In this document: piece by piece, positions 37,928 to 54,710 of the stretch | Layout: every line of letters begins with the position of its first letter | Position numbering within the stretch: position 1 is the stretch's first letter | NCBI GenBank assembly: GCA_041690355.1 | Contig: JAWLHK010000007.1 | Coordinates: 183,122-238,196 of the forward strand | Length of the DNA: 55,075 nucleotides | Reading direction: 5' to 3' | Source of the DNA: a bacterium | GTDB lineage: Bacteria > J088 > JAWLBW01 | The notes under the pieces: model-generated | The model's input: the letters and a program-made list of their open reading frames with translations, nothing else | Database searches by the model: none | Told to the model about the DNA's origin: nothing | Program-made: the position numbers and the translations under genes

Positions 37928-38632
37928 GTGGTCGTCGGACGTCTGACGTCGGACGTCGGTGACCGACAAGTACAAAAACAGAAATCAACGGCATCCCACA
38001 CGGAGGACGCGGCGGCGCGGAGAGGGATAACCGGCAAGAACCTGCCTCATTTGTTCCGGTTTACATTGCCCAGTGCCCAGCGTCCAGCGACCAGCGTCTG
38101 GTTCGCCCTTGCTTCTCTCCGCGGGCTCCGCGCCTCCGCGTGAAACTGGCCTTCGAACACCAGCTTCCCATCCGGTGCCCCCTTCGGGGGAACGCATCCA
38201 GCACTTGGGCGCCGTGAAGGAGGGGGGCCCAGTGGTCGTCGGACGTCTGACGTCGGACGTCGGTGACCGACAAGTACAAAAACAGAAATCAACGGCATCC
38301 CACACGGAGGACGCGGCGGCGCGGAGAGGGNNNNNNNNNNNNNNNNNNNNNNNNNNNNNNNNNNNNNNNNNNNNNNNNNNNNNNNNNNNNNNNNNNNNNN
38401 NNNNNNNNNNNNNNNNNNNNNNNNNNNNNNTTTGTTCCGGTTTACATTGCCCAGTGCCCAGCGTCCAGCGACCAGCGTCTGGTTCGCCCTTGCTTCTCTC
38501 CGCGGGCTCCGCGCCTCCGCGTGAAACTGCAGTTCGAACTCCCTGCTTCCATCCGGTGCCCCCTTCGGGGGAACGCATCCAGCACTTGGGCGCCGTGAAG
38601 GAGTGGGGCCCAGCGACCAGCGCCTAGTGCCC
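37928..38632. repeat. Tandem ~304-bp composite REP-like repeat (at least 2 copies, spanning the gap)
   Basis: Units start at 37928 and 38232. Each has heptamer arrays, a long CAC(A/G)CGGAG...CTCCGCGTG inverted pair, and a CCCCC-TTCG-GGGG hairpin. Confidence 0.85.
38331..38430. other. Assembly gap (100 N)
   Basis: Run of exactly 100 N inside the second repeat unit. The equivalent segment in unit 1 is only about 23 nt. Confidence 0.99.
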
Positions 38633-41534: not shown

Positions 41535-41782
41535 ATCCCACGCGGAGGCGCGGAGACGCGGAGAGGAACAGACCGGCAAAACCCTCCTCCACTTTTTCCG
41601 GATACGTAGCAACGCTTGTCCGGGTCCACACCAGCGCAACTCCAGAGAAAAATCCTTGCCTCTCTCCGCGGCCTCCGTGCCTCCGCGTGAAACTGCCCTT
41701 TGACTACCGTGCATCCCCCTCTGGTGCCCCCTTCGGGGGAACGCATGCGGCACCCGGAGACCATGAGGGAGGGGGGCCCAGC
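41535..41782. repeat. Diverged copy of the composite REP-like element at 37993-38232
   Basis: Same order of parts: ATCCCACGCGGAGGCGCGGAGACGCGGAGAGG...CTCTCCGCGGCCTCCGTGCCTCCGCGTGAAACTG...GGTGCCCCCTTCGGGGGAACGCAT...GGAGGGGGGCCCAG. Confidence 0.85.
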
Positions 41783-45333: not shown

Positions 45334-45353
45334 GCGGGCTTCAGTCTGCAGGC

Positions 45354-45396
45354 GTCACTCGTCACTCGTCACTCGGTCACTTGTCACTTGTCACTT
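45354..45396. repeat. Heptamer array GTCACT(C/T) x6
   Basis: GTCACTC x3, G, GTCACTT x3. Confidence 0.85.
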
Positions 45397-45451
45397 GTTG
45401 TTGACGCTCGACTTTCGACTCGGTCCTCCCGGCCCGTGATACCTTGTAGGC

Positions 45452-46489: not shown

Positions 46490-47365
46490 TCAGCCCTTGC
46501 AGATCAGGACGGGGAGCGGGCTCGCGCGAAGAAGTTCGCGCGTGACGCTCCCGAGGAACATGGCGCGGAGGGGACCCGATTGGGCCGCGACGCCGATCAG
46601 GTCGGCCTTCGTGCGCCGGGCTTGCGCGAGAATGGCGTCGGAAATCTTTCCGTCGGCCGGACGGGCCTCGACCACGACCGTGCGTCCCGCGAGCTGTCTG
46701 GCCGCGACCGACAACTTCCGTTCCGCCTCTTCGAGCGCCTGCTCCCAGGCCTTATCCATATCGCCCGTGAGGGCCGGCTGTCCGAGAATCGCCTGCGGCG
46801 GGGCGGCGTGAAAGAGCTGCAGGCCGAGCGTCGGCGGCAGGTGCGCGAGCTGCGCCAGCGCCCGCGTGTCGCGCTTGCCCAGATCGTGTGCGAAGACGAG
46901 CCGCTGCGGCGCTTCGGGAATGCGCGTGGTGGGATTCGCGACGAGCACCGGCAGGGTGGCGTGGTGGACGAACGTCTCGGCGAACGACCCGAGCATCAGC
47001 CGCTTGACCCCTTTTTTCGCATGCGAGAACAGCGCGACGGCATCGGCCCCCTGTTCGCGGGCCCATGTATCGAGCCGACCCGCCGCTGCCTTCATCGACG
47101 CGCTCTCTTCTTCGACGACGGCGACGCGCCGCGGGGAGAGCGGCAAGCCGGCATCGGCCAGCGCCTTGCGCAGGAGCCCAAGCGGAAACTTTCCGAAGCG
47201 TTCTTTTTCGGGAACGTCGAACGCGGTGCTCAAGCGCGCCTCGCCGTGTCCCGCCACGTACACCACCTGCACGCCGTCCTTTCCGGCGAGCGCGGTGAGC
47301 ATGCTGTACATCGGTGCAAGGGGGAGCTGGTTGTCGAAGGGGTCGATGGCCCACACGATCTTCAT
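46490..47365 (-). CDS. Universal stress protein (tandem Usp domains)
   Basis: RLMLGSFAETFVHHATLPVLV and FLGSVTRELLRASPLPVL. Confidence 0.88.
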   Translation of the reverse strand: MKIVWAIDPFDNQLPLAPMYSMLTALAGKDGVQVVYVAGHGEARLSTAFDVPEKERFGKFPLGLLRKALADAGLPLSPRRVAVVEEESASMKAAAGRLDTWAREQGADAVALFSHAKKGVKRLMLGSFAETFVHHATLPVLVANPTTRIPEAPQRLVFAHDLGKRDTRALAQLAHLPPTLGLQLFHAAPPQAILGQPALTGDMDKAWEQALEEAERKLSVAARQLAGRTVVVEARPADGKISDAILAQARRTKADLIGVAAQSGPLRAMFLGSVTRELLRASPLPVLICKG

Positions 47366-47385
47366 GGGTACTCTCGGGCGCGGGT

Positions 47386-48191
47386 GATTCTTAATTCCTG
47401 ATTCTTAATTCTTAACCGGCAAGAGCAATACTGGTGACATTATCGCACTCTTGGAGTACGGGAAGGTCTTGTCGACTCAAGAATTAAGAATCAGGTATCA
47501 GGAATGCTCTACGGCGCGAACCCTTTGTTACAGGCCGGCGCTCAGCTGGCGCCGTAGAGCCAAGTGACATTATCGCACTCTTGAGTGCACAGCATGCGCT
47601 CTGCATCAAGAATTAAGAATCAGGAATCAGGAATGCTCCGCTGCGCCTGCCGCGCGGCGGAGACTCTCCATCCAGCGATTCAGCTGGCGCCCAATCGAGT
47701 TGGCCCGGTCCATGAGATCACTGCGCTTCTCCTCCAGGTGCCCGTACCGCTCGTTGAGGCCGATCACATACAGCATGGAGCGGAACTCGCCGGCAGATCC
47801 GCGCGCCAGTTTAAGCGAATGAAGCAGGGCCTTGGTTGAGCGCCACTCGAATCCTTCGGCAATGTTGTTCGGGATCGAGAGCCCGGCCCGGGTCAACTGT
47901 ATCCGCAGGTCTCCCTGATAATTGAAACTCCTGTCGTCACAGAGCTTGAATGCGCGATCGGCCAGTTGAATTGCGTCCTTCCAGACCGGTAAATCTTCAA
48001 ACCGTGTGTATCCCATGGCAGCCTCCAATCGGCTCACCATGCGGCAACCAGCACGGAAATGTCAACAAAAAAGCGACGCGTGTTCTGGTTCTGAAGCTCT
48101 TGCCAACTCAAGAATCAGGAATCAGGAATCAGGAATGCTCTACGGCGCGTTCGCGCTCTACAAGCCGGCGCTCAGTTGCGCGCCGTAGAGC
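47386..48191. repeat. Repeat scaffold around the four-helix-bundle gene
   Basis: 33-bp repeat TCAAGAAT(T/C)A(A/G)GAATCAGG(A/T)ATCAGGAATGCTC at 47477, 47606 and 48108, with an inverted copy at 47386-47413. GTGACATTATCGCACTCTTG at 47434 and 47564. Hairpin unit at 47506-47560 and 48137-48191. Confidence 0.9.
47627..48016 (-). CDS. Four helix bundle protein (23S rRNA IVP / Avd-like family)
   Basis: FEDLPVWKDA, LRIQLTRAGLSIPNNIAEGFE, LKLARGSAGEFRSML; GGAGG SD. Confidence 0.9.
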   Translation of the reverse strand: MGYTRFEDLPVWKDAIQLADRAFKLCDDRSFNYQGDLRIQLTRAGLSIPNNIAEGFEWRSTKALLHSLKLARGSAGEFRSMLYVIGLNERYGHLEEKRSDLMDRANSIGRQLNRWMESLRRAAGAAEHS

Positions 48192-48895
48192 AACGGTGCA
48201 CCTGTAAAGGCGTAGTCCGCGTGAAGCGTGAGCGAGAGAAACGGGAGCGGATCGATCTTCAGGCCGGCAAACGCCGAGGGGATCGAGGCCGTGAGGTCTC
48301 CGGGAGCCGCGCCGCCGAGGGGGTCGGCCATCGCCGCCTTGTAGCCGGCGCCGACATACGGCGTGACGAACGGAAAACCCTTGCTCAGCTCGGCCTGCGC
48401 GCTAACCGTCGACAGATCCGCGAAGTCGATGCCCGAGGCCTGCGTATACGCGACCCGCACGCCGAACGCGGGCAGCGCGACGCCGTCTTCGAGCCAGCCC
48501 CACTTCAGCTCTGCCCCCCACCAGGTTTCGTCGCCGTCGAGCCGCCCGCCGTAGGCGCCGCCGACATCGAAGCCGAAGGGGAGCCCCTTCACGGCGCGCA
48601 GGTACCAGCTGCTCCAGTTGGCGGGTCCGCCCACGGCCTGCCAGTCAGCGCGGCCGGAGTCGAGGGAGGCGCCCAGGTAGCCGGCCCCCACGTCGAAGCC
48701 GGTCAGGCCGTACGGGTCCGCGTAATCCACCACCGGAAACGAGAAGACCTGTCCGAGATCGCGCGCCAGATCCGCAAATTCCGCCTCGGTCAGCGGTACC
48801 TCGGGCGCCTGCAGATCGTCGGCGTGCGTGAGGGCGGGCCCTGCCGCGGCAAACCAGGCCGCGAGCGCCGCGGCGATCCGAGCCGTCTTCTTCAT
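48158..48895 (-). CDS. Putative outer-membrane beta-barrel protein
   Basis: Signal peptide; GLTGFDVG, KGLPFGFDVG, SKGFPFVTPYVGAG; alternating beta-strand pattern. Confidence 0.7.
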   Translation of the reverse strand: MKKTARIAAALAAWFAAAGPALTHADDLQAPEVPLTEAEFADLARDLGQVFSFPVVDYADPYGLTGFDVGAGYLGASLDSGRADWQAVGGPANWSSWYLRAVKGLPFGFDVGGAYGGRLDGDETWWGAELKWGWLEDGVALPAFGVRVAYTQASGIDFADLSTVSAQAELSKGFPFVTPYVGAGYKAAMADPLGGAAPGDLTASIPSAFAGLKIDPLPFLSLTLHADYAFTGAPLLYGAQLSAGL

Positions 48896-50573: not shown

Positions 50574-50618
50574 GCGTATACTCTACCACCGGGCGCGCAC
50601 CGCGCGCATGGGTGGGGT

Positions 50619-50648
50619 GATTCCTAATTCCTGATTCCTAATTCCTGA
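50619..50648. repeat. Heptamer array (G/A)ATTCCT
   Basis: GATTCCT AATTCCT GATTCCT AATTCCT GA; same family as 47386-48136. Confidence 0.85.
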
Positions 50649-50872
50649 GAAGCAAGATCGCGGGGTTTCCGAGCCGGTATTCGGCAAGCCCAGGATCGCA
50701 GGCCGCGCAAAGTGCGGGATGCGGCGCCCTTGCCGGATCCCCCCCTCTCCCCCTCCCCCGCTCCCCCACTCCGCAGGGTGCACCGGCGTGAACAAGGTGC
50801 ACACCGGTGGCGCCTCTCGCGAACCATTGCTATCCTGTCCTTTCCACCCCGGAACACGAGGTAGCAGTCCGC

Positions 50873-53389: not shown

Positions 53390-54679
53390 ATGCTCGGTAC
53401 TGCGCTCCTCTTTCTGCTCGCCGCCTTCGATCCGACCGCCAGGGACGTGCCGGCCCCCGTCGCCGACATCGTCGTGCGTGCCCAGCGCACCCGCGAAGCG
53501 GTCATCCTCAGGGAGCTCGACACCCGGCCGGGCCAGCGCTTCTCGCCCGAACGCTGGCGCAGCGACGTCCAGCGCCTCAAGGATCTGGGTATCTTCTGGA
53601 GCGTCGATACGACCGCCGAGACCCGGCCGGGGGGCGTCGTCCTCTATCTGAACGTCCGCGACAAGTGGACGCTCATCCCCTCATTCGGATTCACGGCCTC
53701 AGACGTCTTCGAGTGGTATGCCGGCCTCTACGAAGCCAACCTCTTCGGCTTTCACACCGAGCTCGGCTTTCAATTCGATCAGAAGTCCGGCGGCAACGGA
53801 TATCAGGTCTGGCACTACAACTGGCGCGTGCGCTACACCGACCTCTACTACCTGCTCGAAGCGCACGACCGGAGCACGTTTCACCCCGTCTACGATCAGG
53901 AGGCACCGGCGAACACGCTTGACGGAACGTTCGAGACGCGCAGCCGGTTTCTCTACCTCGAAGTCGGGCGGCGAATCGGCGATCCCCTGCGCCGCATCGG
54001 GCTGGTGTTTCAGCCCGGATTCTCGGATTACAGTCTGGTCGAGCGCACCGCCGAAGACCGCGCGCTGCACCGGGAAACCGGATTCCGGACCCCGCCATCC
54101 CGCTTTCTGAACCGCTACGGGGTGCGCCTGCAGTGGGGGCAGCCGCACGAAGACGACTACATCTTTCAGGGGGCCGGTCTGACGGCCCAATGGCTGACCG
54201 CGTTCCACGGCATCTTCACCCGGCATCAGTACAACCGGCTGCATGCGGATTTCCGCCATCTCTTTCAGCTCGTCGGCCGGCACAACGCCGGCTACCGCGT
54301 CGTCGTGGGCCGCACGAGCAGCACGGCCCTCGAGGACGCCTTCACCGTGGGGGGGCTGCACGAGGTGCGCGGCTTTCCTGACGAACGCTTTTACGGCCAG
54401 AACGTCTGGTATTACAACCTGGAGTACCGTTACCCGGCGCTCGACACCAGCTGGCTGCTCGGGCAGGTGGCCATCTTCAGCGACGGCGGACGCACCTGGG
54501 ACGGCGAGTGGTTTTCCTACGACGCCATCGATCCGGCCCGGCTGGCGGTCGCGACCGGCGCGGGGGTGCGACTGAAGCTCAAGCCCATTCTCAGCACGTT
54601 TCTGCGCATCGACTACGCGCTCGCGTGGCGCCCGTACCGAACGTCAGGGTTGAGCGTAGGGGTCAGTCAGTTCTTCTGA
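53390..54679 (+). CDS. Omp85/BamA-TamA family outer-membrane protein with a single POTRA domain
   Basis: RTREAVILREL...DVQRLKDLGIF (POTRA); VGGLHEVRGF, NLEYR, GAGVR, LRIDYA, C-terminal Phe. Confidence 0.85.
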   Translation: MLGTALLFLLAAFDPTARDVPAPVADIVVRAQRTREAVILRELDTRPGQRFSPERWRSDVQRLKDLGIFWSVDTTAETRPGGVVLYLNVRDKWTLIPSFGFTASDVFEWYAGLYEANLFGFHTELGFQFDQKSGGNGYQVWHYNWRVRYTDLYYLLEAHDRSTFHPVYDQEAPANTLDGTFETRSRFLYLEVGRRIGDPLRRIGLVFQPGFSDYSLVERTAEDRALHRETGFRTPPSRFLNRYGVRLQWGQPHEDDYIFQGAGLTAQWLTAFHGIFTRHQYNRLHADFRHLFQLVGRHNAGYRVVVGRTSSTALEDAFTVGGLHEVRGFPDERFYGQNVWYYNLEYRYPALDTSWLLGQVAIFSDGGRTWDGEWFSYDAIDPARLAVATGAGVRLKLKPILSTFLRIDYALAWRPYRTSGLSVGVSQFF

Positions 54680-54710
54680 TTTACAATTTACGATTGACGA
54701 TTGACGATTT
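54678..54710. repeat. Heptamer array GATT(T/G)AC
   Basis: GATTTAC AATTTAC GATTGAC GATTGAC GATTT, starting at the stop codon. Confidence 0.8.

Follow-up and report, generated by a model that had tools for sequence, protein, structure and literature searches.

The window, a 55,075-nucleotide stretch of a 4.64-Mb bacterial genome, contains at 47627-48016 (minus strand) a gene for a 129-residue four-helix-bundle protein, identified by profile matches (TIGR02436 / PF05635) and fold. Both neighbours are protein genes on the same strand. Downstream is usp (46490-47365), a universal stress protein gene recognised by its match to PF00582. Upstream is an open reading frame of 245 codons (48158-48895), here called the host gene, whose 3' end is the duplicated target. 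Its product, a putative beta-barrel in the first-pass annotation, has no Pfam or NCBIfam match.

Going in the direction of transcription, block comparison defines Y (48137-48191, minus strand) as the host gene's final 10 codons and stop (48158-48190), an 8-nt spacer, and a 13-nt arm that is predicted to pair with the coding part, forming on the minus strand a hairpin over the stop (-34.8 kcal/mol, z -3.7). A3 (48096-48136, plus strand) consists of a leader and a four-unit heptamer array, the leader facing the four-helix-bundle gene in the geometry of an upstream arm. The gene has a likely promoter and ribosome-binding site of its own (48022-48065, minus strand), judged by consensus: TTGACA at 48060-48065; a weak -10 element at 48036-48041; and the ribosome-binding site at 48022-48026. 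In the gene's non-conserved tail, a GC-rich hairpin (47636-47662, assigned to neither strand) has an end that resembles the arm of Y, and homology to the paralogue on contig C26 ends at 47661. A2 (47606-47634, plus strand) is a heptamer array with a decayed leader, and the gene's TGA stop codon sits within it.

Beyond A2 come the spacer s2 and X2 (together 47564-47605, minus strand), the second copy of a promoter-like element, with an extended -10 hexamer at 47569-47574; the joint between the two alleles described below (47556-47568, minus strand); and Y' (47506-47560, minus strand), a displaced host gene end with an unrelated 9-nt spacer and an identical hairpin arm. There follow the spacer s1 with a leader and the array A1 (47460-47505, plus strand; array at 47477-47505), and then X1 (47434-47453, minus strand), also promoter-like, with its extended -10 hexamer at 47439-47444 and 74 nt upstream of the usp start. 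Finally, A' (47385-47426, minus strand), a leader plus inverted array, lies in the probable 5' leader of usp and is predicted to pair as RNA with A1 or A2 (-49.3 kcal/mol, z -7.0, over 47380-47510).

X looks like a promoter element. Among 1958 genes, 78 have an extended -10 motif of its class upstream on the sense strand and 13 on the antisense strand, and X itself occurs at exactly two sites in the genome (47434 and 47564), even with three mismatches tolerated. A scan for two-hexamer promoters and terminators returned no sites, calling neither X nor the promoter of the four-helix-bundle gene.

The first-pass annotation had placed the gene between 33-bp direct repeats, with its stop codon supplied by A2 and the unit enclosed by inverted repeats of about 40 bp. 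All of this was reproduced: 47606-47638 (A2) and 48108-48140 (A3) differ at 2 of 33 positions, with starts 502 bp apart, and the inverted arms (47387-47426 and 48096-48136) are ~80% identical over 41 nt. A1, taken as 47477-47509, has one mismatch with A2 and three with A3; together, A1-Y' and A3-Y form a repeat of 100 bp (84%). The window was also said to lack a transposase or integrase, and no such family was matched among its 50 called genes; elsewhere, the genome has one Y1 transposase and six tyrosine recombinases.

The arrays allow a site-specific account, in which a circle of the gene and one array integrates at, or is excised from, an array through a host or trans-acting enzyme. A2 and A3 are indeed direct and identical at 31 of 33 positions; A1 is closer to A2 than to A3, so that adding an insert at the array turns the empty version into the filled one; and the tail of the gene resembles the arm of Y. 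Nevertheless, such an exchange is unlikely to have made the locus. It leaves the duplication of Y and X unexplained, and the window holds no recombinase gene.

The duplicated elements have diverged unevenly. The coding parts of Y' and Y differ by three substitutions, all synonymous, plus a 1-nt deletion, and the host-typical codons are those of the displaced copy, Y' (0.95 and 0.46, versus 0.05 and 0.03). X (20 of 20 positions), the hairpin arm (13 of 13), and the array (28 of 29) are kept, whereas the spacers after the stop and beside the leader are unrelated between the copies. Neutral decay of one copy is unlikely, because the constrained blocks are kept while the spacers are not.

The upstream copy comprises, in order, the host gene end, hairpin, A3, four-helix-bundle gene, A2, spacer, and X; the downstream copy comprises a second host gene end, hairpin, A1, spacer, and X, and is followed by A' and usp. 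Judged from its sequence, the locus has one gene junction twice over, as a pair of diverged alleles set in tandem, filled then empty, because Y is the host gene end, Y' a diverged and displaced copy of it, and X promoter-like. The earlier proposal of filled and empty alleles in tandem therefore stands, as gene-carrying and gene-free versions of the same junction are both present. Its depiction as one X-A-Y copy with the gene and one without stands in part: both versions exist, but the copies are not near-identical and their spacers are unrelated. (Y was also considered as a dispersed element of the REP type and rejected, since the genome has only two copies.) X, Y, and the DNA of the four-helix-bundle gene have no dispersed whole-unit copies in the genome; only the leader and array recur.

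By three-way comparison, the joint runs from the end of X2 through 3 bases into a 5-nt stretch common to the leader after X1 and to the host gene. This microhomology is exact, but there are small indels relative to both parents. The joint lies outside the arrays, at X and the host gene end, which counts against entry or exit at the heptamer repeat as the origin of the tandem.

Probably, if by a narrow balance, the filled allele was imported from a related lineage through one-sided homologous recombination, with microhomology at the far end. A fragment from that lineage carrying a filled allele would have recombined by homology inside the host gene; its far end would have been joined by short microhomology just before the resident gene end; and the resident end would thereby have been pushed downstream as Y'. 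The route may have been homology-facilitated illegitimate recombination; alternatively, the fragment may have recircularised and entered by a single crossover. Two features by which one-sided recombination is recognised were found: the host gene is continuous upstream, and the joint has 5 nt of exact microhomology.

Published events are comparable. In the accessible text of PMC3240628, joints made with one-sided homology have microhomologies of 3-10 bp, usually with deletion, and recircularised incoming DNA gives duplications of 109-950 bp; the available part of PMC5361080 describes sequential displacement of modules, the same idea. The locus shares with these events homology on one side, a microhomology joint, a resident piece pushed downstream, and no integrase. 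It differs in that they are mostly deleting, whereas the piece displaced here is a 33-nt gene end with the promoter region. It speaks against import that one-sided integration, as far as the accessible part of PMC3240628 goes, is rare and usually deletes resident DNA.

The microhomology fits a local origin equally well: a microhomology-mediated tandem duplication of 130 bp, with later gain of the gene upstream, arrays made by slippage, and the protein a passenger. This history is rather improbable, the divergence between the copies being patchy and synonymous, not random. A mis-assembly of two strains is hardly credible. Although the assembly has 42 contigs, the copies look like alleles of different lineages, and one gap of Ns lies elsewhere in the window, the copies share no exact direct repeat longer than 22 nt, in a unit of 130 bp, no gap is nearby, contamination is 1.77%, and the pattern recurs elsewhere.

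The arrays belong to a genome-wide family. At least 545 period-7 arrays were counted (a lower bound; the scan missed A' and A1). The count was 81 for period 8, and no further period outside the multiples of 7 exceeded 59. Contig C1 has 49 such arrays and none after triplet shuffling, so the arrays are not due to chance. By a crude gene caller, 26 of 547 arrays lie inside genes and the rest outside; 299 of the 547 have four units. In many unit families a YCTTGY leader stands on one fixed side, making the arrays polar: for the GAATCAG unit, 31 of 66 arrays have it on one side and 1 on the other, and for the commonest unit, 33 and 0 of 116 (background, 2%). There are 39 leader-plus-array copies of the GAATCAG unit in the genome, and this leader also precedes other units. 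The "non-heptamer core" of the inverted repeats, earlier taken for a feature of the cassette, is thus this standard leader.

Among strict four-unit GAATCAG arrays, 16 of 57 are one identical 29-mer, and a comparison of two paralogous sites shows the leader and array of one unit written over an array of a different unit. It looks as though the arrays spread by block copying rather than by slippage, as polar blocks of fixed length (~45 bp). Slippage, which the local history invokes, is the proposal published for heptamer repeats in the part of PMC4679880 available, and GAATCAG arrays do occur apart from the gene: of 47 viral loci with such an array, mostly from one lineage, none has a four-helix-bundle gene within 900 bp. 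Yet the genome's arrays are of fixed length with a polar leader common across units, and their variants are stereotyped, unlike the perfect, variable-length viral arrays. In G001, a genome of the same phylum, the GAATCAG unit with leader has no match.

Mrazek et al. 2007, as summarised in the accessible text of PMC4679880, found a great surplus of period-7 arrays between genes, many of them shortly before a start codon. The arrays of this genome are likewise far above chance and mostly intergenic. They differ from the repeats described there in sharing one polar leader and a fixed length and in clustering at four-helix-bundle genes.

Several other repeats were seen. Intergenic heptamer and octamer arrays of other units occur in the window at 45353-45398, 50618-50772, 54679-54709, and 41540-41564. 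At 37933-38521, a duplicated array mosaic on either side of a 100-base N gap (38331-38430) may be a scaffolding artefact. A 177-bp tandem palindromic element lies at the contig end (54743-55075); its copies elsewhere carry differing heptamer arrays, or none, in the same loop. A CRISPR-like array of regularly spaced repeats lies at C25:57949-60336. Some 40 related viral contigs (L328-L374) have a perfect GAATCAG-unit array of variable unit number at one conserved non-coding site, with neither leader nor four-helix-bundle gene.

The product of 47627-48016 matches TIGR02436 with 70.8 bits (cut-off 24) and PF05635 with 72.6 bits (cut-off 33.8). Its predicted model has four helices (pLDDT 95.3) and matches the structures of Xcc0516 (2GSC; TM 0.78, E 3e-5), BT0352 (TM 0.71), and Avd (PDB 4DWL; TM 0.71, 12% identity). 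This agrees with the earlier statement that the family and Avd have a common fold. GC3 of the gene is 0.72, compared with 0.84-0.86 for neighbouring genes. Of the ten paralogues above cut-off in the genome, three look broken, as would suit a passenger protein in the local history; a dispersed element (~225 bp, at least 15 copies) interrupts the 5' end of the paralogue L008 (C26, upstream of 38251). Other homologues include one locus in viral contigs and 16 plasmid records. The accessible part of the literature also reports the family inside cas loci.

Avd itself, according to the available portion of a preprint (bioRxiv 10.1101/2023.10.23.563531), forms a pentamer with positive charge and binds an RNA element. 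The four-helix-bundle protein has the same fold as this protein of diversity-generating retroelements (DGRs). Unlike in a DGR, there is no reverse transcriptase near the gene or on the paralogue contigs, and the differences between Y and Y' fall at synonymous sites and a deletion and are not adenine-specific as in template and variable repeats. The genome's single RVT_1 gene, on C18 (L112:817-2421), encodes 534 residues, has low GC3, and sits beside low-GC genes; C18 has no PF05635 match.

Genes of this family keep company with heptamer arrays. In the genome, 9 of 11 family matches have an array within ~250 bp, compared with 565 of 3784 genes (p about 1e-6). Across 88 homologue loci, 81 of them from one subfamily, period-7 arrays number 1.56/kb near the gene and 0.105/kb far from it, where the DNA is mostly coding, and other periods are near zero. 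This 15-fold difference bears out the enrichment of heptamer repeats around homologues for which the first-pass annotation had called. An array is present in 35 of the 65 homologue loci that have both flanks; broader homologue sets have arrays in 17 of 35, 14 of 27, and 4 of 26.

Where both flanks have arrays, the arms are inverted at 11 of 14 loci, direct at 2, and tied at 1, in a count that leaves out a subfamily with a near-palindromic unit. The direct pair A2/A3 is therefore atypical; A3 with A' has the usual geometry. The predominance of inverted over direct arms also argues against the exchange of a circle, whose excision by direct-repeat recombination, part of the first-pass model, is not expected from such arms.

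The association was also sought at the level of genomes, using 60-80 kb from each, chosen regardless of gene position. In ten genomes that have 3-19 family matches each, 785 kb contained 18 arrays, spread over 6 of the ten; in ten with no family match, 760 kb contained 2 arrays, in 2 of the ten (p 0.02). Two of the genomes are congeners. The two richest in family matches showed no arrays.

A pairing of one protein with one unit was considered and rejected. Outside one subfamily, 7% of 54 pairs with 45-55% identity share a unit, as do 0 of 3 pairs above 55%, and the closest paralogues in the genome use other units; protein similarity does not predict the array unit. In a subfamily of ~170 residues, the flanking heptamer array is also found inside the open reading frame, around codons 90-105 (L031-L111), with 69 of 88 loci above the periodicity threshold. 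Among 63 loci, this motif has 16.8 lag-7 matches of 23, compared with 10.4 after synonymous shuffling; 60 of the 63 have p<=0.05, the loci being related and not independent. The gene at 47627-48016 has no internal heptamer array.

Gene-end duplicates recur around other cargo. A screen of the genome gave 60 matches, of which ten were checked by hand; two were set aside (a whole-gene duplicate and a repeat-derived end), and eight scored: the studied locus; the C26 paralogue; and six with other cargo, presumably lipoprotein-like and toxin-antitoxin-like genes to go by their translations. On C26, the end of a dksA/traR gene (PF01258) is duplicated (71 bp, 91.5%) around the paralogue in inverted arrays, with four synonymous and two edge changes. 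Of the six with other cargo, only one is purely synonymous, and the rest have at least as many non-synonymous changes, a point against import.

Outside the genome, direct repeats bracket 5 of 54 homologue loci and none of 61 shifted controls. One locus is counted twice among the five, and another entry is a pair of whole paralogues; three remain. L110, from a metagenome, is an exact analogue of the studied locus, and L076 is ambiguous. Of three further homologue sets, the first had bracketing repeats at 1 of 34 loci (an Rhs-type core); the second, at 1 of 24, where the repeat belongs to a repeat-rich spacer and not to a gene end; and the third, at none of 25. Gene-end duplicates are thus uncommon around homologues (~4 distinct cases in 137 loci outside the genome), which also counts against import. 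In G162, a 92-nt gene-end duplicate surrounds other cargo, and one junction there (L298, L296) shows two successive inserts, marked by 92-nt and 18-nt copies of the upstream gene end. The duplication pattern recurs and is not specific to the four-helix-bundle gene.

Copies of another paralogue lie as cassettes in Rhs-type loci. The three (C5:68600-72100, C2:371890-374950; L001-L003) are 94-99.5% identical and join three different core positions; one and the same base at the outer edge of the array is the right terminus of all three, and the left terminus is common to two. The fixed right end hints at a defined end rather than random joining, as a site-specific exchange would give, and in that measure hints against import. 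A DGR reading of the C5 and C2 paralogues was rejected: their repeated flanks are fragments of an Rhs-type core (Pfam match below cut-off). At L029 in G001, a homologue fragment lies between two Rhs-type core copies. A search for array-free paralogous sites turned up block replacements, with no clean insertion having a fixed target duplication.

Miniature inverted-repeat (MITE) and REPIN-type elements are short, dispersed units in inverted pairs, and in these respects, and in the one fixed-end case, the locus is like them. It is unlike them in having no dispersed shared core (X and Y are unique) and in that no short, fixed target duplication was seen; most neighbouring arrays, moreover, have different units.

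Orthologous junctions were sought in four genomes of the same phylum. The usp query had no match in any, and the host gene had an orthologue in G001 alone (47% identity, near a contig end), followed there by an array of another unit, with no four-helix-bundle gene in the 280 bp to the contig end. These usp and host gene searches found no donor genome.

The genus g9, unrelated and represented by five species, has more to compare. At five junctions the gene is present in 1, 2, 1, 1, and 1 of the five species; these junctions were picked as apparently species-specific, and a few alleles were read for the first 900 bp only. At another junction it is present in four of five. The alternatives to the gene are other small genes, palindromic repeats, and short spacers, and the neighbouring gene ends change too; one gene-free allele keeps one arm. 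The empty alleles for which the first-pass annotation had asked are therefore found as presence and absence at five of five g9 junctions, but none of the gene-free alleles is a clean single-array empty site. Alleles that carry other cargo or unrelated spacers in place of the gene do not fit site-specific exchange. Entry and exit at the heptamer repeat is further weakened in that the duplication pattern also flanks unrelated cargo.

A parallel type of cassette was noticed: GxxExxY-family genes (TIGR04256) flanked by inverted 8-base arrays (C11:139880-140620). At one junction in two congeners (L326, L325), what we take to be GxxExxY-like genes with inverted short repeats replace the four-helix-bundle gene.

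The nearest published relative of the locus is the intervening sequence (IVS) of 23S rRNA in Coxiella and Leptospira that encodes S23p. As described in the accessible text of PMC4990558, it has the same protein family, inverted repeats that bound the gene, and adjoining heptamers; heptamer repeats before the S23p gene of Coxiella are already in print there. The studied locus differs in lying between protein genes and having a likely promoter of its own, and no rRNA match was found in it. An IVS-like RNA element, in which RNase III would cut a stem made by the inverted arrays, so that the unit is excised from the transcript or processes it, is very unlikely. Its model is the Coxiella IVS, with an RNase III-cut terminal stem and heptamers before the S23p gene in the available part of PMC4990558; inverted arms are, moreover, the norm, and strong pairing of A' with A1 or A2 is predicted. 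Although the gene lies between A3 and A', which are inverted relative to each other, the predicted long stem pairs A' with A2 and does not enclose the open reading frame; A3 stands upstream of the gene's likely promoter; and no Rfam match exceeded the gathering score (two fell far below it). Such an element would in any case concern function, not the origin of the tandem.

Import of the filled allele is favoured on several grounds: because the differences between Y and Y' are synonymous, with host-typical codons in the displaced copy and constrained blocks kept; because there is microhomology at the joint, and the same design is seen at C26 and L110; and because of the six inserts with other cargo, the G162 duplicate, and presence and absence in g9 with changing gene ends. 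There are counterweights besides those already given. The argument for two alleles has few sites to draw on, the coding part offering just three substitutions and one deletion; and the microhomology is 5 nt only, with small indels relative to both parents. We infer the donor, the direction of transfer, and the route, rather than seeing them directly. The first-pass model of array entry at A2/A3 may apply to an earlier step, the entry of the gene into the donor allele.

More generally, the four-helix-bundle gene may be a swappable junction cassette with heptamer arms, spread by host recombination with no recombinase of its own, and the arrays may be fixed-length, polar blocks of ~45 bp that are copied around the genome. 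The least certain step is the putative binding of array-bearing, single-stranded nucleic acid by the Avd-like protein, which would aid its own persistence. It is a tentative thought, and on balance a doubtful one, that lone Avd-fold four-helix-bundle proteins serve in trans as the factor behind a mobility system so far unrecognised. Equally speculative is how they might act: by binding leader-plus-heptamer blocks as ssDNA or RNA, and promoting copying and microhomology joining with no transposase, they could move their own gene between junctions and seed the heptamer excess.

Part of this is already known, namely the Coxiella heptamers at the S23p gene, the unexplained excess of heptamers, and the occurrence of the family in cas loci, as far as the accessible portions of those sources go. 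The literature searched, which included few subscription papers, gave nothing on a general link between four-helix-bundle genes and heptamers, and the available text of PMC4679880 does not mention "intervening", "IVP", or "PF05635". What is new is the finding of diverged alleles in tandem, one gene end having been displaced; the independence from cargo; the comparison of congeners; and the genome-level sample.

In many prokaryotes, no long simple repeats are commoner than those of heptamers, for which no cause is accepted; nor is any function known for the large PF05635 family except in retroelements. By keeping both alleles and the joint, the locus shows how a gene junction can acquire such a cassette with no integrase involved; and the leader with four units is a concrete substrate for a binding test. 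Should the protein not act on the arrays, the locus would still be instructive, though an ordinary outcome of recombination with foreign DNA. If it does act on them, the origin of heptamer repeats and the function of PF05635 would become testable together.
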